Source of the DNA: Candidatus Saccharimonadota bacterium
Lineage (GTDB): Bacteria > Bacteroidota > Bacteroidia > Cytophagales > Amoebophilaceae
Direction: 5' to 3'
Length of the DNA: 32,000 nucleotides
Assembly: GCF_936981045.1 (NCBI RefSeq)
Contig: NZ_OW441264.1
Span: forward strand, 630,001 to 662,000
In this document: positions 411 to 28,445 of the stretch, piece by piece
Layout: every line of letters starts with the position of its first letter
Position numbering within the stretch: the first letter of the stretch is position 1
The notes under the pieces: model-generated
Told to the model about the DNA's origin: nothing
Seen by the model: only the letters and a program-made list of their open reading frames with translations
Databases searched by the model: none
Made by a program: the position numbers and the translations under genes

Positions 411-542
411 TCTCAACTCTTTTTAAACTCGTTAACTGAAGTAGAGCTCCTTTCCTCTTGAATGGTTTCCCAATCAATACTAACGGTAGTATGAGCCCCG
501 CAGACTTCTGATATCACCTCTATTGACTTCGCTTTACTTATA
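411..542 (-). mobile_element. Diverged 5'-region fragment of the type-1 group II intron
   Basis: The reverse complement aligns by eye, with scattered mismatches, to 14613..14745 of the intron in IS6 copy 2 (TATAAGTAAAGCGAA.TCAATA...GATTGGGAAACCA.TCAAGAGGAAAGG...CAGTTAACGAGTTTAAAA). It is bounded by the IS256-A end on one side and MITE copy 1 on the other. Confidence 0.6.
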
Positions 543-1133: not shown

Positions 1134-3920
1134 TTATACAACTACATTTACCATTTTGTTAAGAACAATCACCACATTTTTAGGTGATTTACCTATAACC
1201 CATTTTTGAATCACTTCATTGGCCAATACTGCTTTTTCTATAGCCATAGAGGATGCATTACAGCCAAAAACCATTTTAGTACGCACCTTACCATTTACTG
1301 CAATAGGATATTCAAAACTTTTCTCTTCTAAGTATGCTTCATTCCAAAGTGGAAAAGCCACCTCTGTAATACTATCTGTTTTGTCTATACTTTCCCATAG
1401 CTCAGCAGCCATGTAAGGGGCAAAAGGTTCCAACAACAAAATAAAATCTGCTACAATAGATTGGGTGACCCTTTCAAAAGTTGATAACCTATTTAGACCA
1501 ATCATTAAACTACTTATAGCCGTATTAAAAGAACATTTTTGAATTGATTCTGTTACTTTTTTGATGGTTTTATGGATTACTTTAAGCATTTCCTGATGAG
1601 GAAGCAACTCAGTAGTGGCCCACGAAGCTTTTGCATGGTGTACAAAACGCCATACCTTATTCAGAAAACGAAAGACCCCTTCTATACCAGACAAATCCCA
1701 TGGTTTAGATTGTTCCAATGGTCCTAAAAACATCAAATACAAACGTAAAGCATCAGCGCCATATTGAGCAATAACCTTATCTGGGTCCACCACATTGTAT
1801 TTGGACTTAGACATTTTTTCCATTTTACTCCCACATATATATTTACCTCCTTCTAACAGGAAGCGCGCATCCGCAAATTCAGGGCGCCAATTTTTTAACG
1901 CTTTTAGGTCTAAAATATCTTTTTCTACAAACGCAGTAGGGATATAGATAGGAATGACATCATATTCCGATATAAGACCAGCACTCAGAAAGATATTTTG
2001 ATCTTTTAAACGATATGCTATTGCCGTAGGTTTTTGAATAAGCCCTTGATGGAATAATTTTGGAAATGGCTCACTTATATCAATGTGACCCAAATCATAC
2101 AATAGCTTGGTCCAAAAGCATGCATAAAGGAGATGTCCGGTTGCATGTTCTGCGCCACCTATATAAAAATCTACACCTTTCCAATAAGCTTCTTTTTCCT
2201 TACTCAGAAACGCTTCTGTATTATGTGGATCCATGTATCGCAAAAAATACCAACTAGAACCTGCCCAACCTGGCATAGTATAAAGGTCTAAAGGGTACCC
2301 CTCTGGGGTAGACCAACTGGATGCATTACCCAATGGTGGTGCACCAGATTTGTTTGGTTGATAACTACTTACTTCTGGTAATACAAGGGGTAGTTGGTCC
2401 TCAGAAAGGGCATAAGGAAGGCCATCTTCCTTATAGTATATTGGAAAAGGCTCTCCCCAATAACGTTGCCGACTAAATATAGGATCTTGTAATCTATAAT
2501 TAACCTTATACCTCCCAACCGTTTTTTGCGTAAGTTGTTGCATAACTTTTTCAACAGCTTCTGGTACAGAAAGTCCATTTAGAAAGTCAGAGTTAATCAT
2601 CCTACCTTTAGGTGTTTCATATGGACCATCTTTTATAAGGATCGTACTTTCTATTACAGGCAAGATGAGCAAATCAAAAGATTGTGCAAAGATATAATCT
2701 CGTTTATCATGAGCAGGAACACCCATAATAACACCTCTACCATAGCTGGGTAATACGTAATCTGCCACCCAGATAGGCAATGGGGAACCTGTAAAGGGAT
2801 GTATTACACAAGCACCTACAAATACACCGCTTAAAAAGGTAGTTTCTGCAAGACGACTTCTCTCTAAACGATTTTTAGCTTGCTCAATATAAGCAATAAG
2901 TTCTACATCACCTGTTTGTTGTGCTATAAAACTAGCCCAAGGATGCTCAGGTGCTAAGGCAATAAAACAAGCGCCAAAAATGGTCTCTGGTCTTGTGGTA
3001 AAAACCGTAATGGTCTCTCCTCGTTGGCCTTGTACCCTAAAGGTAATTTCTGCGCCTTGAGACTTGCCCAGCCAATTGCGTTGCATCTCTTTAGTAGAAA
3101 GTGGCCAATCTAAGGCTTCTAGATCGGTTAACAGACGTTCTGCATAGGCAGTCATACGTAAACTCCATTGCTTCATTTTTTTACGTGTGACTGGATAACC
3201 ACCTCTTTGAGAAAAACCATCTTTAACTTCCTCATTGGCCAAAACAGTACCCAATGCTTCACACCAGTTTACCATGCTATCTTTAAGATAAGCTAATCGA
3301 TAATGCAATAGTTTGGTTTGTTTTTCTGTTTCAGTAAATGCATTCCATTCCTCAGCTGAAAAAATAGGCGTATGGTCGTCACAAGCAGCTTGCACTTTGG
3401 TACTGCCGTGGAAAGTAAATTCCTGAATAAGGGTATCAATAGGGGCTGCTTTTTGTATAGCGGTATTGTACCAAGCATTGAACATTTGCAAAAATATCCA
3501 CTGTGTCCATTTATAATAGGCAGGTTCACTGGTATTGATTGATCGATCCCAATCGAAGTCTAAAGCAACTTGTTTAAGTTGTACTATATATTTTTCTATA
3601 TTTTTTGCAGTGGTAATGGCGGGATGTTGGCCGGTTTGAATAGCATGCTGCTCAGCAGGAAGACCAAAAGCATCAAATCCCATTGGATTCATCACACGGT
3701 ATCCACTATGCTTATAGTAACGAGATAATATATCTGAAGCGACATACCCCACGTAGTGCCCTACATGGAGTCCTTCCGCTGAAGGGTAAGGAAACATATT
3801 CAGTATATAATACTTGGGTACATTTTTAGTAGTAAGGGACCTACTATCTATAATAGATTTTTGTGCCTTCCATCTATTCTGCCATTTTTTTTCTATCTCG
3901 GTAAAAATATAGGGTTGCAT
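1134..3920 (-). CDS. leuS: Leucyl-tRNA synthetase
   Basis: A 928-aa uninterrupted ORF. It carries the class I aaRS HIGH-type motif (EGLHVGHYVGY) and KMSKS (KMEKMSKSKYN), and its length is typical of bacterial LeuRS with a CP1 editing domain. Confidence 0.97.
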   Translation of the reverse strand: MQPYIFTEIEKKWQNRWKAQKSIIDSRSLTTKNVPKYYILNMFPYPSAEGLHVGHYVGYVASDILSRYYKHSGYRVMNPMGFDAFGLPAEQHAIQTGQHPAITTAKNIEKYIVQLKQVALDFDWDRSINTSEPAYYKWTQWIFLQMFNAWYNTAIQKAAPIDTLIQEFTFHGSTKVQAACDDHTPIFSAEEWNAFTETEKQTKLLHYRLAYLKDSMVNWCEALGTVLANEEVKDGFSQRGGYPVTRKKMKQWSLRMTAYAERLLTDLEALDWPLSTKEMQRNWLGKSQGAEITFRVQGQRGETITVFTTRPETIFGACFIALAPEHPWASFIAQQTGDVELIAYIEQAKNRLERSRLAETTFLSGVFVGACVIHPFTGSPLPIWVADYVLPSYGRGVIMGVPAHDKRDYIFAQSFDLLILPVIESTILIKDGPYETPKGRMINSDFLNGLSVPEAVEKVMQQLTQKTVGRYKVNYRLQDPIFSRQRYWGEPFPIYYKEDGLPYALSEDQLPLVLPEVSSYQPNKSGAPPLGNASSWSTPEGYPLDLYTMPGWAGSSWYFLRYMDPHNTEAFLSKEKEAYWKGVDFYIGGAEHATGHLLYACFWTKLLYDLGHIDISEPFPKLFHQGLIQKPTAIAYRLKDQNIFLSAGLISEYDVIPIYIPTAFVEKDILDLKALKNWRPEFADARFLLEGGKYICGSKMEKMSKSKYNVVDPDKVIAQYGADALRLYLMFLGPLEQSKPWDLSGIEGVFRFLNKVWRFVHHAKASWATTELLPHQEMLKVIHKTIKKVTESIQKCSFNTAISSLMIGLNRLSTFERVTQSIVADFILLLEPFAPYMAAELWESIDKTDSITEVAFPLWNEAYLEEKSFEYPIAVNGKVRTKMVFGCNASSMAIEKAVLANEVIQKWVIGKSPKNVVIVLNKMVNVVV

Positions 3921-4224
3921 GTCTAAATATTATTCAGTAATCAGTAAAATCAATAATACATCGGGATGGCTTATACCCGTTCATAAACGTGTAGCCACTA
4001 GCTTCATCTAAAAATGGAATACACCTCTTTAATCTTTATAAGACGCCAATTTAGTTTAAAACTAATAAGAAAATATATAAATTTACCAATATTATTCTTG
4101 GGTTGATCCTAAGTTGGATATAGTTGGTGGGTATTGATTATTTATATTGGCATTGGCTATCTATTGCTTACCTTCTGTAGATTAGCCTTTTATTGAAGCT
4201 GACATTTGGTGTATGCAGGCTATT

Positions 4225-5206
4225 GTGTGCTGCAGCAAAGCAGTACTTAAGATAGAGGTAGGCCCTCCGCAATCTGTGTTCAGGCACTGGTTGCCAATGA
4301 CTGTAAGCTGCTATAGTAAAAAGCTGTGGTAGTGAGCGTTAAAGAAAAGATGCACAAGATGTATCACGTAAGGATGAGAGAGACGCATACAAGTGAACCA
4401 CCGTACATGTTTCGATAGATTTAAGTGATGTCAAAACCAGGTTAAGTACCAACACTAGGATAAGTTTGGAGGACACCTGATTACTGTCCAAGTGGCATCC
4501 GGCATAAAAGAGGCGTGACGCTCATCTAGGCTTAAGTATTGAACTGCAGGAACCTTCGTTTGTGATGTTAAAGAGAAAAGGCACAAGTAATAAATCTTAC
4601 AAGGCCAAAAGTATCGAAGCACAATCAAGGGGCGGAATAGTTCGTAGTAGTGATGAAGCAACTGTAATAGTTGTGGAGCAAAGGGGCTACCTTATCTAGT
4701 TACGTATGTATATCAACTAAAAAAATATAGGAGGAATATATAGATATGACAAAACCATTTACAATTTCTAAAAAGTTGGTGTGGGAAGCATATAAACAAG
4801 TTAAAGCCAACAGAGGGTCAGCAGGTATTGATCAAGAGTCAATTGATCAATTTGAGCTTAATCTGAAGGATAATCTGTATAAGGTTTGGAACAGAATGTC
4901 TTCAGGTAGTTATTTTCCACCACCTGTTAAAGCTGTTTTAATTCCAAAGAAAAGTGGAGGAACAAGAACATTAAGCGTTCTTACTGTTACTGATAGAATT
5001 GCGCAAACTATAGTAAAAAGTATACTAGAACCTGATCTAGAAAAGATATTTCATAAAGATTCTTATGGATATAGGCCAGGTAAAAGTGCACATGATGCTA
5101 TAGAAGTAACAAGGAAAAGAAGTAGGCAATATCCTTGGGTTGTTGAGTTTGACATAAAAGGACTATTTGATAATATAGATCACAAGCTGTTAATGAAAGC
5201 ATTAAG
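4225..5206 (+). mobile_element. Group II intron type 2, 5' part (ribozyme domains I-III plus truncated RT ORF)
   Basis: It starts with GTGTGC (4225..4230), as does the type-1 intron (GTGTGCAAC). About 520 nt of non-coding structured-looking sequence are followed by an RT ORF. It is cut off at 5206/5207 by an inserted IS end. Confidence 0.7.
4746..5206 (+). pseudogene. Group II intron reverse transcriptase, N-terminal ~153 aa only
   Basis: WEAYKQVKANRGSAGIDQES..., GGTRTLSVLTVTDRIAQ, YGYRPGKSAHDA and FDIKGLFDNIDHKLLMKAL are RT domains 0-3. The YADD domain and the maturase domain are missing. Confidence 0.85.
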
Positions 5207-5543
5207 TGTGAACTTTCAACAGAAACGCTACAAAAAATATAAAATTATATAGTAGATTATGTGGGATTGTGGGTAAGTTGTTAAACTTATCCATAGTCTC
5301 ACATGATAGCCTAGTGGACAATAAAACTCGTAAGGTTAATGCACGTAAGATTTGGGTACAAACTTATGAAACGTTAGTCTCTATAAGTAAGTTAGCTAGG
5401 CGTTGTGGTATTCCTAGATAAACTCTTTATCGTTGGTTAAAAAGGTATAAACAAGACGGTCTGGCAGGGCTACAGGATAAAACACAAAGACCTAATAAGC
5501 TTAGTAAGTTAAAAGTAACCCCTGATATGGGTCTTTTGTTTTA
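5207..5543 (+). pseudogene. IS481/IS3-like element left end with N-terminal HTH part of the transposase (in-frame TAA, truncated)
   Basis: It begins TGTGAACTTTCAACAG. Translation of 5302..5543 gives ...ISKLARRCGIPR*TLYRWLKRYKQDGLAGLQDKTQRPNKL, typical of the IS481/IS3 HTH region. No DDE domain follows. Confidence 0.55.
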
Positions 5544-5644: not shown

Positions 5645-6992
5645 GGAAGTGTTCTATAAACTGTGTCACATCTCCTGTTCATCTCAACGTCTCTTTTAAT
5701 CTACCGGGAAAAAAGACGTCTATCTGAGATATGGTCAACGCCCAGTTTCGCAGTGGCATAGTCCATTTATCCTCGATCTTCTTTATGGCACAATATACTA
5801 ATTTATACAAAGCATTTATACTGGTAAACGCTCCTTTTGTCTTGGTAAACTTCCTAATCTGCCTATGCAAGCTTTCTATAGGATTGGTGGTATAAATTAG
5901 CCTTCTGACAGAATCTGAATACTTAAAATAACCAGACAAATGTTCCCAATTATTTTGCCAAGATTTGGTAACTATTGGATACTTCCCCCCCCCATTTTTC
6001 TTCTAATTCCAATAGATAATGCTCAGCAACTTCCTTACTTGAAGCTTGATATATTTGCTTTAAATCAGTTAAAAAACGTTTTACGTCTTTGCTAGCTACA
6101 TACTTGAGTGAGTTTCGTATCTGATGTACTACACAGACCTGCACTTGTGCATTAGGGAAAACGCTATTTATGGCTGAAGGAAAGCTTTTTAGGCCATCAA
6201 CACAGGCAATAAGGATATCTTCTACACCTCTTTCCTTAAGTTCGTTAAGTACACCCAACCAGAAGTTAGCCCACTCACTTTCAGACAAATAAAATCCCAA
6301 TACTTCTTTTTTACCCTCTTGATCTATGCCTAATAAGGTATACATGCATTTGCTTACACATCTGCCATCTTCTTTTACCTTAAAAAATATCCCATCCATG
6401 AAAACTATCGGATAAACTGATTGAAGAGGGCGGTTACGCCATTCATTTATTATCGGTAACAAGCTATCTGTAATAGATGATATTTCAGCAGCTGATACTT
6501 TATGATCATAGATCTCTTCAACATGAACGGCTATAGATTTATAGCTCATACCACTAGAAAACATGCTTAAGATCTTGCTTTCCAGCTCAGGATGTAGGCT
6601 TGTTTGACGCTTTTTAACTATTTGTGGATCGAAACTACCTGTCCTATCCCTAGGAGTTAGCAGATCAAAGGAACCAGAACTTGTACGTAAAGTTTTAGAG
6701 CTTTTGCCATTTCTTCTATTATTTTCTGTTGAATCACTAGATAAATGGTGTGCCATTTCACCTTCTAGACTTGCCTCTAGAAGCTTTTTTATCAGAGGCG
6801 TTAAAGCACCACCTTTTCCTGTTAAAGGCTTACCTAAACGGATAGAGCACAAAATATTTTCCTCCAGAAATTTGTAATCTACTAAACCAACATAGGAATT
6901 GTTCTTATTTTCTTCCATGTCTAAAACCTTTAATGTTTATTTAATTAATTTATAACTTTTTATCGCCTTGACACAGTTTATAGAACACTTCC
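5645..6992 (-). mobile_element. IS256-family IS type A, full length (1348 bp)
   Basis: The terminal inverted repeats are GGAAGTGTTCTATAAACTGTGTCAC (5645..) and GTGACACAGTTTATAGAACACTTCC (..6992). The element encloses a Mutator/IS256-type transposase. Confidence 0.9.
5679..6918 (-). pseudogene. IS256-family transposase split by a frameshift in a G9 (C9 on + strand) run
   Basis: ORFs 5950..6918 (322 aa) and 5679..5939 (86 aa) are consecutive parts of one transposase. Removing one G from the run at 5985..5993 fuses them (...EEKWGGKYPIVTKSWQNNWEHLSGYFKY...). Confidence 0.85.
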
Positions 6993-7011
6993 TTTGGATA
7001 TATATTGGGTA

Positions 7012-7119
7012 TTATTCGGCCATTAGCATAACAAAATTCTCAAAAGTAGAAAGATGATTTTTAGCTCCGATTACTTGTCCTTTTTGAATCATAGGAATGT
7101 TTTCTATCCCTGCAATGGT
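7012..7119 (-). pseudogene. IS6-family transposase C-terminal segment (TIAGIENIPMIQKGQVIGAKNHLSTFENFVMLMAE*)
   Basis: It matches the conserved IS6/IS26 C-terminal GIE....KGQ motif. The frame is closed by TAG immediately upstream, so it is only meaningful when joined to the N-terminal part. Confidence 0.7.
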
Positions 7120-7236
7120 CTAGAGTAAAGAAATGGTTGGACCACTTAAAATTAAGCATATCTATTGCTTCTGATTGCTCGCGATACAGTAACTGACTAA
7201 CTTGATTCTTCATTGTTTACCCATTCCCTTCTCATC

Positions 7237-7269
7237 CCACCGTACGTTCAGTTTTCCCGAATACGACGG
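7237..7269 (-). ncRNA. Group II intron domain V candidate (type-1 intron)
   Basis: The RNA reads CCGUCGUAUUCGGGAAAACUGAACGUACGGUGG. It forms an 8-bp basal helix (CCGUCGUA/UACGGUGG), a 2-nt CG bulge on the 3' strand and an upper helix with an A-rich loop. It starts about 15 nt after the RT stop codon. Folded by eye only. Confidence 0.55.
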
Positions 7270-7283
7270 TCTGACAGTCTTCT

Positions 7284-7625
7284 TCATAAACCTTGCACAA
7301 CTCTCTCAGGATACTTAATCATTCCACTACCAATGTACAACATCCCCATTGTATAGAGTTTGCTATTGGGATAGCTTTGCCACCCACACCCACGGCCTTT
7401 TCTTCTATGGGTTAAGTATCTGCGAAATCGGTTATTAATAAAGTCCTGCAATCTAACAAAAGCTTCACTCGCATTCGTATGTTTAAAATAGTTAACCCAT
7501 CCTAACACTACTAGTTTTATTTGCTCGATGAATGCTTGAGGTTTGATTGGTGCTCTTCTACAAGTCAGGTATTTTAGTCTGTTACGGATGCTTTGTTGGG
7601 ATTGTTTCATTGGAAATACATAAAT
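7284..7625 (-). pseudogene. Group II intron RT, C-terminal thumb/maturase (X) domain fragment
   Basis: RNRLKYLTCRRAPIKPQAFIEQIKLVVLGWVNYFKHTNASEAFVRLQDFINNRFRRYL is a typical maturase domain. The 5' part is cut off at 7625/7626. Confidence 0.8.
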
Positions 7626-9208: not shown

Positions 9209-9272
9209 GGTTTTGTCGCGTTTATTCTAAAAAATCATTATTTTAGTATCTGCAGTTAAAAAAGTAGTTATT

Positions 9273-9875
9273 ATGTTTAATATTTCGCCCAAATTATTAC
9301 CTTATTTTAAGGGCTATTGTTCTTCAGCAGAAGTCATCCTGTTATTTGTCTAGATGAAGTGTCGTTTTTCCTTGAGCTATAGAGATTTGGAAGATATGAT
9401 GCGTATGAGAGGCGCAAGAGTTGATCATTCTACGCTACAAAGATGGGTTATTAAGTTTGTTCCTCTTATAGATGAAGCAGTAAGCAAAAGAAAACGACCA
9501 GTTGGTGGTAGTTGGAGAATGGATGAAACCTATGTTAAACTAAACGGGAAGTGGATCTATTTATATAGAGCAGTAGATCGTTATGGTGATACAGTTAACT
9601 TTTTTTTATCTGAGCATAGAGACAAGTCTGCAGCTTTTTCTTTTTTTCGTAAGGCGATCACAGAAAATAATATTCCTAAGAAAGTAGTAATTGACAAAAG
9701 CGGTAGTAATAAAGCTGCCCTTGATACGATCAATACAGAACTTGATCAAGATTATACCATTCAAATATTTCAAAACAAATACTTGAATAATAGAGTTGAA
9801 CAAGATCATAGGTTTATCAAAAAACGGCTAAAACCTATGCTTAGTTTTAAGTGTTTTAAGTCTGCAGCCATTGCA
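9273..9875 (+). pseudogene. IS6-family transposase, N-terminal 201 codons (in-frame TAG at 9351..9353)
   Basis: MFNISPKLLPYFKGYCSSAEVILLFV*MKCRFSLSYRDLEDMMRMRGARVDHSTLQRWV...WRMDETYVKLNGKWIYLYRAVD... follows the IS26-like pattern (HTH, DETYVK, YLYRA.D). Confidence 0.8.
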
Positions 9876-10234
9876 CGCCGGCACAGGTGTGCAACAAATG
9901 GGGTGTAAGTCCCCTGACTCTAATTTGTCTATTTCGGGAGTCTAGCAGGAGGTTGGATTTGTGGGGTGATTCACAGGTTTAAGTTACCTTTAAATGCATC
10001 TGCAAAATAGCGGGCTGCAACAAAAGTGAACCTAAATTAGCCTCGTTAAGCCGTTTAAGCGCATTTGCCGACTATCTAGTGGCTACAGGAAGGCTGATAG
10101 TAGGATGGAAAAAATAGACCATGACCATCATACAAGTGCCGGGGTGTTAGGGGTTGCACGCTATGAATGTTTCACATCGTAGTCCGGGAGATCTGATATG
10201 AATCCAGTAGGCCACTGGAAACTTTATTGTATAA
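9876..10234 (+). mobile_element. Type-1 group II intron-bearing insert, 5' 359 nt
   Basis: Near-identical to 14259..14617. GTGTGCAAC begins 11 nt after the CCATTGCA repeat. Confidence 0.75.
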
Positions 10235-13418: not shown

Positions 13419-13655
13419 TAAAAAGTTGCCAGTAGGAAATATACCATTAAAGATGATTAGAAGATTAGTTTAATGGGGCCGAGGGGTGGCTTCTGATTTT
13501 CCAGCTGCAAGGAGTGCTTTCAGCAACTTTTTCCAGAGGGCTTGATTTTTTGTACACTTTTTTATCAAGAAAAAAGTGTGATACAAATTCCGGTTTTGTC
13601 GCGTTTATTCTAAAAAATCATTATTTTAGTATCTGCAGTTAAAAAAGTAGTTATT

Positions 13656-14258
13656 ATGTTTAATATTTCGCCCAAATTATTACCTTATTTTAAGGGCTAT
13701 TGTTCTTCAGCAGAAGTCATCCTGTTATTTGTCTAGATGAAGTATTGTTTTTCCTTGAGCTATAGAGATTTGGAAGATATGATGCGTATGAGAGGCGCAA
13801 GAGTTGATCATTCTACGCTACAAAGATGGGTTATTAAGTTTGTTCCTCTTATAGATGAAGCAGTAAGCAAAAGAAAACGACCAGTTGGTGGTAGTTGGAG
13901 AATGGATGAAACCTATGTTAAACTAAACGGGAAGTGGATCTATTTATATAGAGCAGTAGATCGTTATGGTGATACAGTTAACTTTTTTTTATCTGAGCAT
14001 AGAGACAAGTCTGCAGCTTTTTCTTTTTTTCGTAAGGCGATCACAGAAAATAATATTCCTAAGAAAGTAGTAATTGACAAAAGCGGTAGTAATAAAGCTG
14101 CCCTTGATACGATCAATACAGAACTTGATCAAGATCATACCATTCAAATATTTCAAAACAAATACTTGAATAATAGAGTTGAACAAGATCATAGGTTTAT
14201 CAAAAAACGGCTAAAACCTATGCTTAGTTTTAAGTGTTTTAAGTCTGCAGCCATTGCA
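13656..14258 (+). pseudogene. IS6-family transposase N-terminal 201 codons (in-frame TAG at 13734..13736)
   Basis: Same sequence as 9273..9875 apart from a few substitutions (for example C3Y, Y133H). Confidence 0.8.
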
Positions 14259-15684
14259 CGCCGGCACAGGTGTGCAACAAATGGGGTGTAAGTCCCCTGA
14301 CTCTAATTTGTCTATTTCGGGAGTGTAGCAGGAGGTTGGATTTGTGGGGTGATTCACAGGTTTAAGTTACCTTTAAATGCATCTGCAAAATAGCGGGCTG
14401 CAACAAAAGTGAACCTAAATTAGCCTCGTTAAGCCGTTTAAGCGCATTTGCCGACTATCTAGTGGCTACAGGAAGGCTGATAGTAGGATGGAAAAAATAG
14501 ACCATGACCATCATACAAGTGCCGGGGTGTTAGGGGTTGCACGCTATGAATGTTTCACATCGTAGTCCGGGAGATCTGATATGAATCCAGTAGGCCACTG
14601 GAAACTTTATTGTATAAGTAAAGCGAAATCAATAAGGGTCATATCAGAAGTCCGCGGGGTCTATAATACCGTTCGTATTGATTGGGAAACCACTCAAGAG
14701 GAAAGGGACCCTACTTCAGTTAACGAGTTTAAAAGAGTTGAGAATGTCTGATTGCCCTAAAGCTATGAACGGAACATTAAAAGTTCAGCAACTCCAAAGA
14801 ACTCTATATCTCAAATCCAAGCAATGTAAGGAAGTCAGATTTTATAGTATATATGATAAAATTTATCTAAAAGATGTACTTTGGGAAGCTTGGCGTCAAG
14901 TCAAAGCAAATCAAGGTTCAGCAGGGATTGATGGTAAAAGCATAAGTGATATAATAGATCAAGGTGAGGCAAAGATTATCAATAAATTGCAGCAGCAACT
15001 ACGCGCAAAGCTATACAAATTTACCTCAAGCAGGTTGGTAGAAATACCCAAAGCTAAAGGTGGAACAAGGCCACTAGAGGTAATGACCGTAGAAGATCTC
15101 ATAGTGCTCACAGCAATGAAAATAGTCATTGAACCGATCTTCGAAGCTGATTTTCATGAATGTTCATACGGCTATAGACCGAAACGAGGAACCAAACAAG
15201 CGAGTTTAGTGATCCGAGAAGATCTATACCAGCAGGCATGGGGCGTAGTTGAGATTGATTTTCAATCATACTTTACTAGCATCTCACACGAAAAGTTATT
15301 AAAACTTATTAGTAAAAGGATAGCAGATGGCAGTATGTTGAAGCTAATTAAACAAACCCTAACAACGTCAATAGTAAAACAAGGTAAAATTACATGCAAG
15401 AAAGTTGGAGTACCGCAAGGATCACCAATATCACCGTTGTATAGTAATCTACCTAAATGTTATAGACCAAGTGTGGCACTCAAGGGGGTATCCAGAAAAG
15501 CTAAACGCAACCTTGCATAGGTATTGTGATGATGCAATTTTGGTATGTCGTAAGAGTGCTAGCTTAGCGCTGGAGAAATTCACAGAATTAGTAAGGAGGT
15601 TATCGCTCATTATTAACCACCAAAAGACACGAATAACGAAACTGAAAGAAGGCTTTAACTTCATAGGTTTTTACTTTGTAAAAA
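14259..15684 (+). mobile_element. Type-1 group II intron-bearing insert, 5' 1.4 kb
   Basis: It follows CCATTGCA (14251..14258). GTGTG lies at 14270..14274, then about 400 nt of non-coding RNA region, then the RT ORF. Confidence 0.8.
14678..15684 (+). pseudogene. Group II intron reverse transcriptase (2-nt deletion frameshift, 3' truncated)
   Basis: WEAWRQVKANQGSAGIDG, GGTRPLEVMTVEDLIV, YGYRPKRGTKQA and GVPQGSPISPL are read in one frame. IYLNVIDQVWH...RYCDDAILVC follows in the +1 frame, with the break near 15446..15449. Confidence 0.85.
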
Positions 15685-15924: not shown

Positions 15925-17112
15925 TTCCAGACTTTTTGATCAAGACGGCTTACTCAAACAATTAAGTAAGCGTCTTGTAGAAAAAGCATTACAGTCAGAA
16001 ATGGATGACCATTTAGGTTATAATAAGTATGCACGTAGTGATTCAGAGAATGTACGTAATGGATTATCCAGTAAGCACGTTATTACTGATAATGGCGTTA
16101 TATCGGTTGAAGTACCCAGAGGTAGAGCATCGACTTTTGAACCTATTTTATTGCCTAATCGTCAAACAAGAATTCCTAGTTTGGATGATAAGATCTTATC
16201 TTTATATGCTAAAGGTATGAGTCTGTCAGATATTCAGATTCAAATACAGGAATTATATGGCGCAGAAGTAAGTGAAAGCCTGATAAGTAACATCATAGAC
16301 TCTGTTATTGAAGATGTTAAGATATGGAAAAATCGTCCCTTAGAATCAGTCTATTCTATTGTTTTTTTTGATTGCTTTGTAGTTAAAGTTAGACAAGATA
16401 AGCGCATCATCAACAAGGCAGTCTATGTCGCTTTAGGTATAGATAGATCTAGCATAAAGGATGTTTTAGGGCTTTGGATGAGTGAAAATGAAGGGGCTAA
16501 ATTTTGGTTAGGCAATTTAACAGAACTCAAAAATCGGGGTATGAACGATATGCTCATTGCATGTACAGATAATTTGTCAGGCATGTCTGAGGCCATTGCT
16601 GCTGTATACCCAAAAACGGAACATCAGCTCTGTATTGTTCATGCAATTAGGGGTAGTTTGCAGTATGTTTCTTATAAACATAGAAAGGTATTAGTTGCTG
16701 ATTTAAAACCAATTTATACAGCAGTTACCGAGCAAGAAGCATTGATGGCCTTAGAAGCTTTTGCTACTAAGTGGAATCAACAATACCCACAAATAGCCCA
16801 ATCTTGGTATGCTAACTGGGATAATCTGATGGTATTTTTACAGTACCCTAATGCCATACGTAAGGTCATTTACACAACAAATGTTTGGAATCTGTAAATA
16901 GCCAATTTCATAGAGTTACCAAAAATAAAAAAGTGTTCCCTAACGATCTAGCTGTTTTTAAAACATTATATCTAACTATTAACTACATGACTAGAAAATG
17001 GACCACCTCTATTCATAACTGGAGCGAGGCTATGGCACATTTTTTAATTAAATTTGAAAACAGAATTGAATAAAACCAAAAAACTAATTTACACACTTAA
17101 GTGGACAGAGCC
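15925..17112 (+). mobile_element. IS256-family IS type B, copy 1, 5'-truncated
   Basis: The right end is ...AATTTACACACTTAAGTGGACAGAGCC (to 17112). The same end, reverse-complemented, begins at 24208. Confidence 0.85.
15926..17073 (+). pseudogene. IS256-family (type B) transposase, N-terminally truncated with a -1 frameshift
   Basis: ...LFDQDGLLKQLSKRLVEKALQSEMDDHLGY...IACTDNLSGMSEAI...IYTTNV, then ESVNSQFHRVTKNKKVFPND in the -1 frame (junction at 16880..16897). Confidence 0.85.
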
Positions 17113-17220
17113 GCTTTTGAGAATTTTGTTATGCTAATGGCCGAATAATACGCAATATATATCCAAAACTTCACTTAAAAGAAAAGACGTTACTAACGAA
17201 AATATAGAAGCGACAGAACC
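17113..17220 (+). mobile_element. IS6-family right-end remnant (108 bp, IRR facing accC)
   Basis: It is the reverse complement of 18633..18740 with a handful of mismatches and ends ...GAAGCGACAGAACC at 17220. Confidence 0.85.
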
Positions 17221-18588: not shown

Positions 18589-18704
18589 ATAAAAAGGAAT
18601 TTGTATCCTACTTATATATTCACTGCTACGAGGGTTCTGTCGCGTCTATATTTTCGTTAGTAACGTCTTTTCTTTTAAGTGAAATTTTGGATATATATTG
18701 GTTA

Positions 18705-18812
18705 TTATTCGGCCATTAGCATAACAAAATTCTCAAAAGTAGAAAGATGATTTTTAGCTCCGATTACTTGTCCTTTTTGAATCATAGGAATGTTTTCTAT
18801 CCCTGCAATGGT
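18705..18812 (-). pseudogene. IS6-family transposase C-terminal segment
   Basis: TIAGIENIPMIQKGQVIGAKNHLSTFENFVMLMAE*, the same as 7012..7119. Confidence 0.7.
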
Positions 18813-18929
18813 CTAGAGTAAAGAAATGGTTGGACCACTTAAAATTAGGCACATCTATTGCTTCTGATTACTCGCAATACAGTAGCTGACTAACTTGATT
18901 CTTCATTGTTTACCCATTCCCTTCTCGTC

Positions 18930-18962
18930 CCAAGGTACGTTCAGTTTTTCCGAATACGGCGG
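18930..18962 (-). ncRNA. Domain V candidate of intron copy 3 (two mismatches in the basal helix)
   Basis: The RNA reads CCGCCGUAUUCGGAAAAACUGAACGUACCUUGG. Compared with 7237..7269, the basal helix has C.C and C.U mismatches. Confidence 0.45.
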
Positions 18963-18976
18963 TCCGACAGTCTTCT

Positions 18977-20599
18977 TCATAAACCTTGCACAACTCTCTC
19001 AGGATACTTAATCATTCCACTACCAATGTACAACATCCCCATTGTATAGAGTTTGCTATTGGGATAGCTTTTCCACCCGCACCCACGGCCTTTTCTTCTA
19101 TGGGTTAAGTATCTGCGAAATCGATTATTAATAACGTGAGTTCGGGATTTATTTGACTGATTTACAAAAATTTAATATCAATTATTTAGTTAATATTTGC
19201 ACCTATTTAACAAGTTTTTATATCTAATTTTATAAATATAATATATATAATAAACTGATTATAAGAATTATTTGTTATTCAACTACCTATTTAACTGTCT
19301 ATAAAACAAATTTTATAAATTTTCATTGGTATTGATTATCAAATGAAAAAATAATCTAATCCCGAATTCACGTTAATAAAGTCCTGCAATCTAACAAAAG
19401 CTTCACTCGCATTCGCATGTTTAAAATAGTTAACCCATCCTAACACTACTGGTTTTATTTGCTCGATGAATGTTTGAGGTTTGATTGGTGCTCTTCTACA
19501 AGTCAGGTATTTTAGTCTGTTACGGATGCTTTGTTGGGATTGTTTCGTTGGAAATACATAAATGCTATTTCTGCCACTTGTTGGACTCTTTCTTTTTGCA
19601 AAGTAAAAACCTATGAAGTTAAAGCCTTCTTTCAGTTTCGTTATTCGTGTCTTTTGGTGGTTAATAATGAGCGATAACCTCCTTACTAATTCTGTGAATT
19701 TCTCCAGCGCTAAGCTAGCACTCTTACGACATACCAAAATTGCATCATCACAATACCTATGCAAGGTTGCGCTTAGCTTTTCTGGATACCCCCTTGAGTG
19801 CCACACTTGGTCTATAACATTTAGGTAGATTACTATACAACGGTGATATTGGTGATCTTTGCGGTACTCCAACTTTCTTGCATGTAATTTTACCTTGTTT
19901 TACTATTGACGTTGTTAGGGTTTGTTTAATTAGCTTCAACATACTGCCATCTGCTATCCTTTTACTAATAAGTTTTAATAACTTTTCGTGTGAGATGCTA
20001 GTAAAGTATGATTGAAAATCAATCTCAACTACGCCCCATGCCTGCTGGTATAGATCTTCTCGGATCACTAAACTCGCTTGTTTGGTTCCTCGTTTCGGTC
20101 TATAGCCGTATGAACATTCATGAAAATCAGCTTCGAAGATCGGTTCAATGACTATTTTCATTGCTGTGAGCACTATGAGATCTTCTACGGTCATTACCTC
20201 TAGTGGCCTTGTTCCACCTTTAGCTTTGGGTATTTCTACCAACCTGCTTGAGGTAAATTTGTATAGCTTTGCGCGTAGTTGCTGCTGCAATTTATTGATA
20301 ATCTTTGCCTCACCTTGATCTATTATATCACTTATGCTTTTACCATCAATTCCTGCTGAACCTTGATTTGCTTTGACTTGACGCCAAGCTTCCCAAAGTA
20401 CATCTTTTAGATAAATTTTATCATATATACTATAAAATCTGACTTCCTTACATTGCTTGGATTTGAGATATAGAGTTCTTTGGAGTTGCTGAACTTTTAA
20501 TGTTCCGTTCATAGCTTTAGGGCAATCAGACATTCTCAACTCTTTTAAACTCGTTAACTGAAGTAGGGTCCCTTTCCTCTTGAGTGGTTTCCCAATCAA
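18977..20599 (-). pseudogene. Group II intron RT/maturase, interrupted by a MITE and by the 2-nt deletion
   Basis: ORFs 19757..20599 and 19339..19872, plus the coding remainder at 18977..19133. The MITE is inserted after ...RLQDFIN. Confidence 0.85.
19134..19373 (+). mobile_element. MITE copy 6 (240 bp) with 5-bp TSD TAATA, inside the intron maturase domain
   Basis: TAATA lies at 19129..19133 and 19374..19378. The paralogous empty site is CGGTTATTAATAAAGTCC at 7429..7446. Confidence 0.95.
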
Positions 20600-21018
20600 T
20601 ACGAACGGTATTATAGACCCCGCGGACTTCTGATATCACCCTTATTGATTTCGCTTTACTTATACAATAAAGTTTCCAGTGGCCTACTGGATTCATATCA
20701 GATCTCCCGGACTACGATGTGAAACATTCATAGCGTGCAACCCCTAACACCCCGGCACTTGTATGATGGTCATGGTCTATTTTTTCCATCCTACTATCAG
20801 CCTTCCTGTAGCCACTAGATAGTCGGCAAATGCGCTTAAACGGCTTAACGAGGCTAATTTAGGTTCACTTTTGTTGCAGCCCGCTATTTTGCAGATGCAT
20901 TTAAAGGTAACTTAAACCTGTGAATCACCCCACAAATCCAACCTCCTGCTACACTCCCGAAATAGACAAATTAGAGTCAGGGGACTTACACCCCATTTGT
21001 TGCACACCTGTGCCGGCG

Positions 21019-21621
21019 TGCAATGGCTGCAGACTTAAAACACTTAAAACTAAGCATAGGTTTTAGCCGTTTTTTGATAAACCTATGATCTTGTTCAACT
21101 CTATTATTCAAGTATTTGTTTTGAAATATTTGAATGGTATGATCTTGATCAAGTTCTGTATTGATCGTATCAAGGGCAGCTTTATTACTACCGCTTTTGT
21201 CAATTACTACTTTCTTAGGAATATTATTTTCTGTGATCGCCTTACGAAAAAAAGAAAAAGCTGCAGACTTGTCTCTATGCTCAGATAGAAAAAAGTTAAC
21301 TGTATCACCATAACGATCTACTGCTCTATATAAATAGATCCACTTCCCGTTTAGTTTAACATAGGTTTCATCCATTCTCCAACTACCACCAACTGGTCGT
21401 TTTCTTTTGCTTACTGCTTCATCTATAAGAGGAACAAACTTAATAACCCATCTTTGTAGCGTAGAACGATCAACTCTTGCGCCTCTCATACGCATCATAT
21501 CTTCCAAATCTCTATAGCTCAAGGAAAAACAATACTTCATCTAGACAAATAACAGGATGACTTCTGCTGAAGAACAATAGCCCTTAAAATAAGGTAATAA
21601 TTTGGGCGAAATATTAAACAT
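21019..21621 (-). pseudogene. IS6-family transposase N-terminal 201 codons (in-frame TAG at 21541..21543)
   Basis: Same protein as 13656..14258 apart from H24R. Confidence 0.8.
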
Positions 21622-21653
21622 AATAACTACTTTTTTAACTGCAGATACTAAAA

Positions 21654-21893
21654 ACCTGAGTTCGGGATTTATTTGACTGATTTACAACAATTTAATATCA
21701 ATTATTTAGTTAATATTTGCACCTATTTAACAAGTTTTTATATCTAATTCTATAAATATAATATATATAATAAACTGATTACCAGAATTATTTTTTATTC
21801 AACTACCTATTTAACTGTCTATAAAACAAATTTTATAAATTTTTATTAATATTGATTATCAAATGAAAAAATAATCTAATCCCGAACTCACTT
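21654..21893 (+). mobile_element. MITE copy 7 (240 bp) with 5-bp TSD TAAAA, in the IS6 leader between IRL and the transposase start
   Basis: TAAAA lies at 21649..21653 and 21894..21898. Empty sites (TTTTA on the + strand) are at 9241..9245 and 13624..13628. Confidence 0.95.
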
Positions 21894-21977
21894 TAAAATA
21901 ATCATTTTTTAGAATAAACGCGACAGAACTGAAAAAAATATTTATCTTGCAGTAATTCAGCATGAATTTATAATTAT

Positions 21978-23692: not shown

Positions 23693-24207
23693 ATGAATGT
23701 AGAAAAATTAGTTGAAATATATTATGCTGTTGATGAATTTCTCATAAAGTTTATGCCGTATATGGAAAAACAACTGTTAACCAACTCTAAAAGAAAACCC
23801 ACTAGAACTTGTTCATTAACTTTGAGTGAAATAATGACTGTTCTTATTGCCTTTCATGTGATTGGTTTTAGAAATTTTAAGTCTTATTATATTCATTTAC
23901 AGCAATTTCATTCTAGTAAATTTGGAAAGTTAGTAAGCTACAATAGATTTATAGAACTGATCCAAAGAACGTTAGTTCCCTTGTACTGTTTTACACAAAG
24001 TCTTGCTAAAACAAAAACAGGTTGTTATTTTATGGATGCAACAGCCATCAAGGTTTGCCATATCAAAAGAGCCTATACGTACAGGGTTTTTAAATCGATT
24101 GCTACTAAAGGTAAAACCAGCATCGGTTAGTTTTTTGGATTAAAGTTGCACTTGATAGTCAATGATTTAGGAGAAATTATGAATTTTCAACTGACCATAG
24201 GTAAAAC
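23693..24207 (+). pseudogene. IS982-family transposase, TGG to TAG nonsense at 24128..24130 and truncated
   Basis: MNVEKLVEIYYAVDEFLIKFMPYMEKQLL...TSIG*FFGLKLHL. Copy A has TSIGWFFGLKFHL. Confidence 0.85.
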
Positions 24208-25262
24208 GGCTCTGTCCACTTAAGTGTGTAAATTATTTTTTTGGTTTTATTCAATTCTGTTTTCAAATTTAATTAAAAAATGTGCCATAGTCTCGCTCCA
24301 GTTATGAATAGAGGTGGTCCATTTTTTAGTCATGTAGTTAATAGTTAGATATAATGTTTTAAAAACAGCTAGATCGTTAGGGAACACTTTTTTATTTTTG
24401 GTAACTCTACGAAATTGGCTATTTACAGATTCCAAACATTTGTTGTGTAAATGACCTTACGTATGGCATTAGGGTACTGTAAAAATACCATCAGATTATC
24501 CCAGTTAGCATACCAAGATTAGGCTATTTGTGGGTATTGTTGATTCCACTTAGTAGCAAAAGCTTCTAAGGCCATCAATGCTTCTTGCTCGGTAACTGTT
24601 GTATAAATTGGTTTTAAATCAGCAACTAATACCTTTCTATGTTTATAAGAAACATACTGCAAACTACCCCTAATTGCATGAACAATACAGAGCTGATGTT
24701 CCGTTTTTGGGTATACAGCAGCAATGGCCTCAGACATGCCTGACAAATTATCTGTACATGCAATGAGCATATCGTTCATACCCCGATTTTTGAGTTCTGT
24801 TAAATTGCCTAACCAAAATTTAGCCCCTTCATTTTCACTCATCCAAAGCCCCTAAAACATCCTTTATGCCAGATCTATCTATACCTAAAGCGACATAGAC
24901 TGCCTTGTTGATGATGCGCTTATCTTGTCTAACTTTAACTACAAAGCAATCAAAAAAAACAATATAATAGACTGATTCTAAGGGACGATTTTGCCATATC
25001 TTAACATATTCAATAACAGAGTCTGTGATGTTACTTATCAGGCTTTCACTTACTTCTGCGCCATATAATTCCTGTATTTGAATCTGAATATCTGACAGAC
25101 TCATACCTTTAGCATATAAAGATAAGATCTTATCATCCAAACCAGGAATTCTTGTTTGACGATTAGGCAATAAAATAGGTTCAAAAGTAGATGCTCTACC
25201 TCTGGGTACTTCAACCGATATAACGCCATTATCAGTAATAACTTGCTTACTGGATAATCCAT
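24208..25262 (-). mobile_element. IS256-family IS type B, copy 2, 5'-truncated with multiple frame breaks
   Basis: It begins GGCTCTGTCCACTTAAGTGTGTAAATT. ORFs 24247..24435, 24519..24842 and 24835..25170 are consecutive pieces of the same transposase as 15926..17073. Confidence 0.85.
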
Positions 25263-25936: not shown

Positions 25937-27262
25937 ATGAATTTAAATGCACTTACGCAAATGCTTCTTATAGGTTTAGCTATACTTTTGATCGTTTCTT
26001 TTTTGGGATCTCGGTTACAAGGCATGAGTCTCAGTATGCTGGGCGGGTTGGGGGTATGGTTGTTTATGGTAGTTTTACATGCGACGCCAGCAGATCCTCC
26101 TTTTCAAATCATGCTCTGTATTGCTGCAGTAGTGGCTGCAGTGGGAACCATAGAGGCTGCAGGTGGATTAAGCTATTTGGTGCAACTGGCTGAGTTATGC
26201 ATCCGAAAACATCCACGCAGCATCATATATATTAGTCCTATGGTAACCTATGCCATTACCTTTTTGGGTGGTACCAACCACATCGCTTACTCAATTCTGC
26301 CTGTTATTGCGGAGGTATCTAAAGAAGTAGGCATTCGCCCAGAACGCCCTTTATCCCTTTCTGTTATTGCCGCTTTGCACGGTGCGCTTGCTAGCCCTAT
26401 TTCTTCTATAATGGTTATTTTAAGCGGATTTTTAAGGATTTCTGGCATAGATATGGTCACCATTTTTAAGATTATCATTCCTTCAACAATGGGTGGATTG
26501 CTAATGGCAACATTTGTAACCAGTTTATTGAGTAAAGCCATGCCAGAGGCCTCAACGGTTACAGAAACAGCAACAACAGATATGGCCCCTGCCTGTCTGC
26601 CCCGCGGTGCTAGGATAGCAAAGCTTTCAATTGTTTGCTTCTTACTGGGTAGTTTAGGTACAGTTTTGATAGATGCTATTCCATCTTTACGCCCCTCTTG
26701 GGAAGTAAATGGCATCAAGATACTCCTACCATCTGCTTATATTATGCCCCTTGTGATGTTATCCACTGCTGCATCTATTATGTTGTTGTGCCGGATTGCA
26801 CCCAAGTCTATTACCCAGGGCAAAGCATTTACTGCTGGCATACAAGGGATGTTCGCTATTCTAGGTATTGCTTGGTTAAGCAGTACATTTGTGCAAAGTA
26901 ATCAACCAGTTTTACTGCAGTTTATATCAGCTTATCTTTCTGAGCCCTGGCAATTTTCTATTATCCTACTCTGTATGGCTGCTATTATGGGTAGCTCTGC
27001 TGCCACGATTAAAGCGGTATTTCCATTAGGTATCGCTTTAGGGATTCCTCCTAAAATATTATTGGCTGCTGCAACAGCTGTTAATGGTGTCTTTATTATT
27101 CCCATTTATCCAACCATACTGGCTGCTATTCATTTAGATACTACAGGCACAACCCGAATTGGTAAATTTCTTTTTAACCATAGTTTTATGTTGCCAGGTT
27201 TGGTTTCGATTGCTGGCGCAATGGGCATTGGATTCTTGCTAGTGTATATGGGTGGCCTATAA
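25937..27262 (+). CDS. dcuA: Anaerobic C4-dicarboxylate transporter, DcuA/DcuB family
   Basis: A 441-aa polytopic ORF with end-to-end resemblance to DcuA/DcuB (PVIAEVSKEVGIRPERPLS, HLDTTGTTRIGKFLFNHSFMLPG). Confidence 0.9.
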   Translation: MNLNALTQMLLIGLAILLIVSFLGSRLQGMSLSMLGGLGVWLFMVVLHATPADPPFQIMLCIAAVVAAVGTIEAAGGLSYLVQLAELCIRKHPRSIIYISPMVTYAITFLGGTNHIAYSILPVIAEVSKEVGIRPERPLSLSVIAALHGALASPISSIMVILSGFLRISGIDMVTIFKIIIPSTMGGLLMATFVTSLLSKAMPEASTVTETATTDMAPACLPRGARIAKLSIVCFLLGSLGTVLIDAIPSLRPSWEVNGIKILLPSAYIMPLVMLSTAASIMLLCRIAPKSITQGKAFTAGIQGMFAILGIAWLSSTFVQSNQPVLLQFISAYLSEPWQFSIILLCMAAIMGSSAATIKAVFPLGIALGIPPKILLAAATAVNGVFIIPIYPTILAAIHLDTTGTTRIGKFLFNHSFMLPGLVSIAGAMGIGFLLVYMGGL

Positions 27263-27281
27263 TAATCATATTTAATGTATA

Positions 27282-28445
27282 ATGGTTACAATTGGATGGC
27301 TTGTGCTCCTGCTGATGCTTGTAATAGGTTTACGCTTAGGTGGGGTTTCGCTTGGTTTATTGAGCGGACTGGGCTTGGGGTTATTGACTTTTTCGATACA
27401 ACCTGCTGCTCCTCCCAATGACTTAATGCTTCTGCAAGCCACCTGGTTCCTCTTGATGGCTACACTGGAAGCAACCGGGTTTTTTTATCTACTGGAAACC
27501 AAGCTCAGGTCTTGCATAGCGCAAGCCCACAACCATCATGGGGGTTTCGTTGTGCTGTTTTGCTATGGTTTGGTTTTTTTAACAGGAGATGCAAAATGGT
27601 TGCATCGATTGGTATGTGATCAAAATGCGCTATATAGAGACAAACCCCGGCTACTGGTTCCTCTTGGCATTGCTGCACATATGGCATTACTGGCTAGTCC
27701 TTTATCTATTTCAGGTATACTACTTATAGTGGTGGCAGGAAATGGTGGGTTGGCTATACTGGATTTAATAGGGATGATTGTTGCGATTACGGCCAGCATA
27801 ACAGCAGCTAGTAGCCTGCTGGTTGGACGTATACCCGACAAATGGCTTATGAAGGCATGTGAGTGGTTGAAGGCGTATCCTAAGGATGATGCTAAGGCAG
27901 TAACTGAATCAACAGGTAAGGTACAATTTTCCTTTTTGCTTTTGTTACTGGTTGCCATGCTGTTTCTACTTATAAAACCTGAAGCCAATAGATTAACGGG
28001 GCTAAGTTGCAAGATTTTTCCAGTTAGATTTCCTATATTTTTTGCTTTAGTCATGCTTTCCATTGCAGCTGTAGCCATATTGGGGTTTAAGATAAAGCCT
28101 GCTAAGATTTTGCAAACCTATCGATTTAAATTAGGGATTCAGCAGTTCTTTATATTTTTAGGATTAACTTGGTTATTAGATAGTTTAATAAGCCATGACA
28201 AAACTTATTTAATAAAAATAGTGTGTGATGGTAAGGCTAATTATGGTGATTATCTAGTAGCAGCATTATATATGCTTTTGATAGATATACCTATTGTCAT
28301 TTGGCTTTTTAGTGCACTACTGATAGAGCAGCATTGCAACATTGTAACGCTTGCCCTATGGCTTGTTGTAGTGCATAGTCTAGCGCCTATAAGATGTTGG
28401 ATCAGCAGTATCTTACAATCATATAAAAATAGTAATTCTATTTAG
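27282..28445 (+). CDS. Highly divergent DcuA/DcuB-like membrane protein (tandem paralogue, possibly decaying)
   Basis: A 387-aa polytopic ORF. IGLRLGGVSLGLLSGLGLGLL and KPRLLVPLGIAAHMALLASPLSISG align with the upstream ORF, but the C-terminal DTTGTTRIG motif is absent. Confidence 0.6.
   Translation: MVTIGWLVLLLMLVIGLRLGGVSLGLLSGLGLGLLTFSIQPAAPPNDLMLLQATWFLLMATLEATGFFYLLETKLRSCIAQAHNHHGGFVVLFCYGLVFLTGDAKWLHRLVCDQNALYRDKPRLLVPLGIAAHMALLASPLSISGILLIVVAGNGGLAILDLIGMIVAITASITAASSLLVGRIPDKWLMKACEWLKAYPKDDAKAVTESTGKVQFSFLLLLLVAMLFLLIKPEANRLTGLSCKIFPVRFPIFFALVMLSIAAVAILGFKIKPAKILQTYRFKLGIQQFFIFLGLTWLLDSLISHDKTYLIKIVCDGKANYGDYLVAALYMLLIDIPIVIWLFSALLIEQHCNIVTLALWLVVVHSLAPIRCWISSILQSYKNSNSI

Follow-up and report, generated by a model that had tools for sequence, protein, structure and literature searches.

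The stretch of DNA analysed here (hereafter the window; 32,000 nucleotides of contig NZ_OW441264.1, positions 630,001 to 662,000) encodes four housekeeping proteins, LeuRS, AccC, Map and DcuA, that match exactly those of the Cardinium endosymbiont cOegib. The host of this bacterium is the spider Oedothorax gibbosus, and its chromosome comprises 1,137,202 bp. The subject of the present study is an insertion sequence (IS) of the IS6 family, similar to ISCca2, the transposase gene of which is interrupted by a group II intron. The element and the intron each carry, in their turn, a miniature inverted-repeat transposable element (MITE). The complete element, designated copy C, has the following features, listed from its left to its right end:

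18633..21930, minus strand: complete IS6-family (ISCca2-like) element, 3298 bp, delimited by terminal inverted repeats, the NF033587 match and a BLAST map
21654..21898, minus strand: MITECca01-type insertion in the IS6 leader, 245 bp including the duplication, missing from copies A and B
21541..21621, minus strand: transposase codons 1-26 of a 235-codon frame, followed by a premature TAG at 21543-21541, as read from the translation
21022..21540, minus strand: transposase 5′ exon, codons 28-200, including the DDE region and ending ...FKSAAI; its last 7 nt, AGCCATT, are intron-binding site 1 (IBS1)
18813..21021, minus strand: group II intron, class C-like, 2209 nt (1964 nt without the MITE), 5′ end GCACG, 3′ end CUCUAG
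20869..20997, minus strand: domain I region, match to Rfam group-II-D1D4-4 (RF02003, 46.8 bits, E 1.7e-8)
20810..20816, minus strand: exon-binding site 1 (EBS1), AGUGGCU, a 7-bp complement to the end of the IS6 5′ exon, AGCCAUU
18977..20533, minus strand: reverse transcriptase (RT)/maturase pseudogene with RVT_1 and GIIM, a 1-nt frameshift near 19825-19840 and a MITE in the maturase domain
19135..19379, minus strand: MITECca01-type insertion in the maturase domain, 245 bp, duplication TTATTAA; the empty site is at 7357-7512 of copy D
18930..18962, minus strand: domain V with GG changed to CU beside the CGC catalytic triad, helix opened
18816..18926, minus strand: domain VI, a long stem with a lineage-variable tip insertion, from the comparison of ten 3′ ends (minimal in relative L003)
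18705..18812, minus strand: transposase 3′ exon, codons 201-235 (TIAGIENIPMIQKGQ...MAE) and stop

The presence of a complete IS6-family element at 18633..21930, proposed in an initial annotation made from the sequence alone, was confirmed by its termini and its protein. The terminal inverted repeats AGTTCTGTCGCG and GGTTCTGTCGCG lie at 21930-21919 and 18644-18633; the IS6 ends begin with GG, the left one reading GGTTTTGTCGCG or AGTTCTGTCGCG and the right one GGTTCTGTCGCG. The product is an IS6-type DDE transposase (NF033587, 214.7 bits with a cutoff of 125), 87-94% identical to annotated Cardinium IS6/ISCca2 transposases. Copy C is composed of about 844 bp of IS6 sequence, the 2209-bp intron including one MITE, and the 245-bp leader MITE, and the ~844 bp left without intron and MITE fit the IS6 family size of about 0.8 kb. 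No matching 8-mers representing an 8-bp target duplication were found in the flanks of copies A, B and C, which fits IS-mediated rearrangement and is no argument against family membership.

The native junction was read from an alignment of eight uninterrupted homologues, including P0001, a protein from the same genome 94% identical to the window transposase. All eight read ...FKxFxSAxITIxGIENI at the intron site, and the native DNA is GCCATT|ACCATTGCA (GCC ATT | ACC ATT GCA). Since the homologues continue ...AAI|TIAGIEN, the insert spans exactly 21021..18813 and separates codon 200 (Ile) from codon 201 (Thr); its excision restores the transposase frame exactly (...AAITIAGIEN...). The three left halves (A from 9209, B from 13592, C up to 21930) do enter the same insert after ...GCAGCCATT, and both right halves (7119..6993 and 18812..18686) continue with ACCATTGCAGGG, that is TIAGIEN, as had been noticed before. 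The insert had been regarded as an intron-bearing unit at a fixed position; a group II intron is indeed found at that position, in the sense orientation, but the insert is the intron itself, base for base. The octamer CCATTGCA is indeed present on both sides but is no duplication, being made up on the left of the native CCATT followed by the first three bases of the intron, GCA. Deletion of the insert with one octamer had given the junction FKSAAIAGIEN, which is two residues (IT) short of that in all eight intact homologues.

Nor is the frame open, as the 233-codon reading frame proposed earlier would have it. TAG stands at codon 27 of the 235-codon frame in all three left halves, the translation of A, B and C being MFNISPKLLPYFKGYCSSAEVILLFV*, where the homologues have LLFVYMKCRF with Tyr at the TAG position. 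An intact, autonomous transposase frame is thus absent, TAG at codon 27 and the intron at 200/201 being present in all copies that reach these sites. The statement that every copy is interrupted holds within the window and fails for the genome, which encodes the uninterrupted P0001; the published curation of cOegib lists 109 copies of ISCca2 (IS6 family), 43 of them intact (PMC9769881).

Relatives of the intron were found by a scan with the repaired RT in a set of one genome per species, cOegib being outside the set. They come from the Cardinium of Nabis limbatus (L001, L004), Cardinium cBcalN2 (L007), cEina3 (L061), a gammaproteobacterial metagenome-assembled genome (MAG; L002), another MAG (L003) and Ca. 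Glomeribacter (L005, L006). The intron of L001 is intact (1969 nt, 2513-4481), and intact RT open reading frames (ORFs) of 435-453 aa are kept in L001, L002 and L003. A tblastn search revealed no intron-less IS6 copies in the Cardinium relative loci. The mobile unit starts with GCACGCCGG and ends with CUUUACUCUAG. Homology to the relatives begins at 21021 and ceases at 18813, the flanks being unrelated in L001, L004, L002, L003, L007 and L061. Identical units in unrelated flanks point to past mobility of the intron.

The termini of this unit are the least expected feature of the intron lineage and were absent from the claims of the initial annotation. Group II introns are delimited by GUGYG...AY, but the window intron and all relatives of its lineage have GCACG...UAG. 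Canonical relatives from the same scan have the termini GUGCG...GAU (L031, L054 and L077 begin with GUGCG), and the GGGUGAAAGUCCC motif lies 27 nt from the GCACG end here and 27 nt from the GUGCG end there. The non-canonical termini are located at 21021-21017 and 18815-18813 in the window, at 2513 and 4481 in L001, at 2515 in L002 and at 1458 in L003. Intron positions 2-7 are predicted to pair with positions 14-19 in a terminal hairpin. Compared with the canonical relatives (GUGCGCCC...GGGCGCA), the change of U2G3 to C2A3 is mirrored by that of A20C19 to G19U18, and because the partner strand has changed as well, the substitution looks compensatory. A literature search on GCACG termini of group II introns returned nothing relevant.

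The pentamer GTGTG at 21007, put forward earlier as the 5′ end, was rejected as a splice site. It is located 14 nt inside the mobile unit, is unconserved (GCGTG in L002, GCGTT in L003), and is ruled out by the homology breakpoints and by the canonical IIC relatives as well. It was a candidate on account of its spacing from GGGGUGUAAGUCC, which is like that in Ll.LtrB. In C.te.I1 and the fungal rRNA introns, splicing takes place upstream of GUGYG (PMC4024640, PMC4424553), and the GUGUG 14 nt inside the window intron gives it a superficial likeness to them. Unlike in that type, the window pentamer is not conserved, and its counterpart in the alignment with canonical relatives is their GGGCGC stem strand, not their 5′ end. 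It appears from this alignment that the 5′ terminus itself has changed, rather than that splicing has shifted.

The ribozyme is small, with about 485 nt upstream of the ORF. A scan with the Rfam covariance models, recommended in the initial annotation, gave the following: RF02003 matches copies A (9897-10025, 50.5 bits with a gathering score of 49) and C, and RF00029 matches copy D, but RF00029 has no match in copy C at E<=1. The RNA structure of domains I-IV is conserved, the relatives matching RF02005 or RF02003. The EBS1 column, located in domain I, covaries with the target: AGUCAGA faces UCUGAUU in L001 and L004 (7 bp) and CGUCG faces UGACG in L002 (5 bp). This covariation in three lineages fixes the 5′ boundary and shows the window variant to be matched to the IS6 site. 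No co-located covarying site was found for EBS2, and the search for EBS3 gave two candidate columns, 278 and 302. The 3′ exon begins with A-CCATT (18811-18807), a second pentamer complementary to EBS1 being located 1 nt past the 3′ splice site.

The domain V hairpin recognised earlier in the insert is present. In six relatives this domain is invariant (CCGCCGUAUUCGGGAAAACUGAACGUACGGUGG, CGC triad, 2-nt bulge), and its lower helix CCGCCGUAU/GUACGGUGG and the CGC triad are common to canonical IIC-type loci that start with GUGCG. It is damaged in both window copies that reach it. The predicted folding energy is -18.1 kcal/mol for the consensus but -7.2 for copy C, no better than that of shuffled sequence; in copy D one C of the CGC triad has become U, and the RF00029 score is 26.3 bits, against 37-42 in the relatives. 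The full D5-D6 model of RF00029 matches in L001-L003 and ends at the proposed 3′ boundary. In domain VI the bulged branch-point A is at 18819, 7 nt from the intron end; the stem is followed by UAG (18815-18813). The insertion at the tip of domain VI ranges from 0 nt in L003 to about 100 nt in L005 and accounts for the ~110 nt that separate domain V from the 3′ end. These ~110 nt were also considered as a co-mobilised exon or a 'domain VII' 3′ extension; both were rejected, the region being the domain VI stem with its variable tip, minimal in L003.

In accordance with the initial annotation, the insert carries an RT/maturase ORF without an endonuclease domain; the ORF lies in intron domain IV and holds RVT_1 and GIIM only, and a D domain is likewise absent. 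The repaired RT of 437 aa scores 345.8 bits with TIGR04416 (cutoff 300). Its closest solved relatives are RTs of class C (IIC) introns: 7UIM (9e-51), 5HHL (3e-42; also 5HHJ) and 6AR1, the GsI-IIC enzyme (2e-41), while the IIB protein 6ME0 (3e-28) and the IIA protein LtrA (3e-22) rank far below. B and C share one and the same 1-nt frameshift, at SPLYSN/IYLN. With this frameshift in both copies and the MITE in copy C, no cognate maturase would be made from B or C.

From the best RT matches and the shared domain V motifs, the intron seems to be class C (IIC)-like. It resembles the introns B.h.I1, O.i.I1, GsI-IIC and E.r. IIC (PMC1702495, PMC4424553; PDB 6AR1, 7UIM) in its small ribozyme, in its ~437-aa RT without D and endonuclease domains, in the domain V lower helix with the CGC triad, and in GGGUGAAAGUCCC located 27 nt from the 5′ end. 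It differs from them in its termini (GCACG...UAG, not GUGYG...AY) and in the 7-bp EBS1-IBS1 pairing, since class C introns have a short EBS1 and no EBS2. The insertion in coding sequence, the domain VI tip of 0 to ~100 nt and the lack of an upstream hairpin at four of the five targets also set it apart. Among the five target sites, no terminator- or attC-like stem-loop was found just upstream at four; only one upstream flank folds better than shuffled sequence (L004, z = -3.4), and the IS6 site has z = -0.39.

Further copies and fragments of the composite were located by BLAST of copy C against the window, and the census of copies has this scope:

9209..10234, plus strand: copy A, IS6 left half (9209-9872) and intron 5′ part (9873-10234), cut by a MITE
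13592..15684, plus strand: copy B, IS6 left half (13592-14255) and the 5′ 1429 nt of the intron (14256-15684), cut by a MITE and an IS256-family element
17114-17220: stray IS6 right end beyond copy B
6993..7625, minus strand: copy D, intron 3′ part without the maturase MITE (7625-7120) and IS6 3′ exon (7119-6993)
411..542, minus strand: further intron fragment, 90% identical to 20664-20534 of copy C, adjoining a MITE

The left halves of A, B and C are 99.2-99.7% identical across the boundary between IS6 and insert, the IS6 part being as similar from copy to copy as the intron part. The single interruption site shared by the window copies is a matter of common descent, not chance. Three of the five fragments (A, B and D) have been truncated by MITE and IS256 insertions. 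The nesting on three levels and the two MITEs of copy C, in the leader and in the maturase domain, reported in the initial annotation, were verified: both are 245-bp insertions, for which copies A and D retain the empty sites. In its 5′ 520 nt, the window intron has 11 private changes, against 9 in the intact L001; there being no excess, the decay appears to be recent and partial. Three exact AGCCATTA sites (IBS1 and the first base of the 3′ exon) are unoccupied, at 17556 and 22604 on the plus strand and 28912 on the minus strand, two of them within accC and map.

The MITE is present in nine copies in the window and has the ends CGTGAGTTCGGGATT, terminal inverted repeats and no ORF. It was assigned to the MITECca01 type by the description, not the sequence, in the published account (PMC9769881). 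The fragment at 411-542 begins at the intron position (copy C 20664/20660) at which a MITE cuts copy A (10226-10234). This coincidence may reflect either a MITE hotspot or an older MITE-bearing intron lineage with recombination between MITEs.

It is likely that a IIC-like intron was reverse-spliced into the gene of an ISCca2-like element and that the composite, multiplied afterwards mostly as DNA, is now decaying. The endonuclease-less class C-like intron of about 1.96 kb would have entered between codons 200 and 201 in the sense orientation, guided by the 7-bp EBS1-IBS1 pairing. The IS6::intron composite would then have multiplied in cOegib mostly as DNA, either by IS6 transposition, for which intact ISCca2 would provide the transposase in trans, or by recombination between repeats. 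Its decay comprises the transposase nonsense codon, the RT frameshift, domain V point mutations, insertions of MITECca01 and IS256, and truncations. The boundaries, the pairing, and the lesions with their distribution over the copies are seen directly, while we infer this order of events and this route of copying; entry by reverse splicing at a cognate site is indicated by the sense orientation together with the exact in-frame junction and the EBS1 match. Amplification of a defective composite at the DNA level is favoured by the TAG common to A, B and C, by the frameshift common to B and C, by the equal similarity of the IS6 and intron parts, and by the three empty AGCCATTA sites. Present-day splicing and transposase production from the window copies seem unlikely, judging by their lesions.

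Several points weigh against this scenario. The 8-bp duplication is found in no copy, so that spread of the composite by simple IS6 transposition is conjectural, and the perfect EBS1 match is equally compatible with repeated retrohoming. The shared TAG could be older than the arrival of the intron. C and D have different lesions in domain V; the ribozyme was therefore probably still intact while the copies were made, and an earlier phase in which expression of the composite depended on splicing is possible. The effect of the lesions on splicing is a prediction. The count of occupied and empty sites in this IS6 subfamily refers to the window.

The initial annotation had implied a functioning IS6 element, with the intron gating every copy and transposase made only after its splicing or precise loss. 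The sense orientation, the exact restoration of the frame on removal of 21021..18813, the 7-bp EBS1-IBS1 pairing, the domain VI stem with its branch A, and an intron 5′ part without excess private substitutions (11 against 9 in L001) speak for such gating. The state of the copies misfits it, nevertheless: the shared TAG at codon 27 would allow at most an N-terminally truncated product of 208 aa, domain V has a broken helix in C and a mutated triad in D, RT/maturase is frameshifted in B and C with a MITE added in C, and A, B and D are truncated. The genome has, besides, 43 intact ISCca2 copies according to the published curation (PMC9769881). That transposase output depends on splicing in these copies is therefore quite improbable. 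It is less far-fetched, though still unlikely, that an active intron retrohomed independently into each IS6 copy in the manner of RmInt1, the shared lesions having been spread by gene conversion between repeats. EBS1 is tuned to the IS6 site, whereas that of L001 fits a different target, the intron family is mobile elsewhere in several contexts, C and D acquired their domain V lesions independently, and RmInt1 is a precedent. The identical RT frameshift in B and C and the equal similarity of the IS6 and intron parts are at odds with this, and an intron with a defective RT could move only with help in trans. Between copies C and D, moreover, the intron has 18 differences in 496 nt and the exon 1 in 127 (Fisher p=0.14); the intron is thus, if anything, the more diverged part, and recent homing into older IS copies predicts the opposite.

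The notion of a transposon-like cassette with the 8-bp target duplication CCATTGCA, the intron being merely inside it, can be practically dismissed. IS6-family elements typically duplicate eight base pairs, and the octamer does occur on both sides; but the native sequence already holds CCATT twice, the left-hand GCA belongs to the intron, the unit occurs in six other loci without a flanking repeat, and there is nothing between the IS6 exons and the intron ends. The homologue junction and the ends of the unit in other loci refute this reading. A broader interpretation, tentative and rather doubtful at present, would see here an apparently undescribed class C offshoot, marked by GCACG...UAG, by target choice through a long sequence-specific EBS1 in place of hairpins and by a preference for transposase or RT genes, together with an IS6::intron composite that was co-propagating and splicing-gated before its decay. 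The lineage, as delimited for this interpretation, has members in Cardinium, Glomeribacter and the gammaproteobacterial MAG, the change of the 5′ terminus being compensated in the terminal hairpin. The IS would copy the intron as DNA without RT, and splicing would gate transposase synthesis as long as decay had not set in.

The homing of an intron into an IS transposase gene has been described for RmInt1 in ISRm2011-2 of Sinorhizobium meliloti (PMC4238363, PMC4496777, PMC1802570). Like the window intron, RmInt1 lacks an endonuclease and has its natural homing site in an IS transposase gene, in the sense orientation and in multiple IS copies; its splicing has been proposed to limit IS transposition, and its genomic copies have lost activity through point mutations and fragmentation. 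The resemblance extends to the 3′ exon, where CCATT at +2..+6 (18811-18807) recalls the cryptic IBS1* of RmInt1 (PMC4238363). The differences are that RmInt1 is a IIB/class D intron in an IS630-family element and the window intron a IIC-like one in an IS6-family element, and that RmInt1 uses EBS1 and EBS2, whereas only EBS1 was found here. Also, splicing and homing of RmInt1 were shown experimentally, while the window copies are known from sequence alone and all look dead. In cOegib itself, nested elements have been published for the same genome, with the same ~240-bp MITE and with MITEs landing in mobile elements, and the available part of that account does not describe the IS6::intron composite and the intron homing site (PMC9769881). 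With homing, the splicing brake and decay documented for RmInt1, and nesting documented for cOegib, an intron nested in an IS is an already known phenomenon.

The present case adds an IS6/IIC example to the phenomenon worked out for RmInt1 and illustrates how mobile elements inactivate each other while an endosymbiont genome shrinks. To judge from the lesions that the copies have in common, a host IS can apparently go on amplifying an intron as DNA when the RT of that intron is no longer functional. The GCACG...UAG termini and the 7-bp sequence-specific EBS1 would bear on the strictness of GUGYG/AY in IIC ribozymes. Neither of these two points, amplification as DNA and the termini, alters the current picture without an experimental test.

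Nesting is also seen in the relatives. In L002 (1093-5527, JBDTIZ010000046.1), an RF01999-type intron interrupts an IS6-family transposase gene after WRMDE, and the RT gene of this intron is itself split in the YADD region by a relative of the window intron; this is an intron within an intron within an IS6 gene, in another phylum. In L061 (1008-1070) and L007 (880-940), the intron adjoins putative transposase genes, recognised by eye as IS5-type (…ENPYWQYFCGYD) and IS982-type. If these neighbours are transposase genes, the intron family lands repeatedly in IS elements. The intron copy of L001 lies about 1.7 kb downstream of 23S-5S rRNA genes (L001 1-755), and its 3′ end is followed by a MITE-like sequence 74% identical to the window MITE, in contrast to the published account, which reports the MITE from cOegib only (PMC9769881).

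The genes leuS, mlaEF, accC, map, dcuA and ftsW alternate in the window with mobile elements, which include IS256-family and IS982-family transposase genes, the nine MITE copies and fragments of two different group II introns. This fits the description of mobile elements in the published curation, where mobile DNA makes up 29.6% of the cOegib genome, group II introns are recorded, and MITECca01, a MITE of about 240 bp, has 169 copies and often disrupts other mobile elements (PMC9769881). The IS256-family (Transposase_mut) copies, probably ISCca9 or ISCca10, are three in number:

5950-6918, minus strand: IS256-family copy
16001-17117, plus strand: IS256-family copy
24203-25262, minus strand: IS256-family copy

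Two of the three abut truncated IS6 right ends, at differing positions (copy C equivalents 18686 and 18739). Two neighbouring ORFs of DcuA/DcuB-family transporters are located at 25937-27262 and 27282-28445 on the plus strand, the second being a much weaker profile match. The fragment of a second, different group II intron (4254-5252, plus strand) matches RF01999 (group-II-D1D4-2) with 88 bits and contains a truncated RT ORF at 4746-5252. Its 5′ end, GTGTGCTGCAGCAAAGCAG, is almost identical to that of the outer intron of L002.

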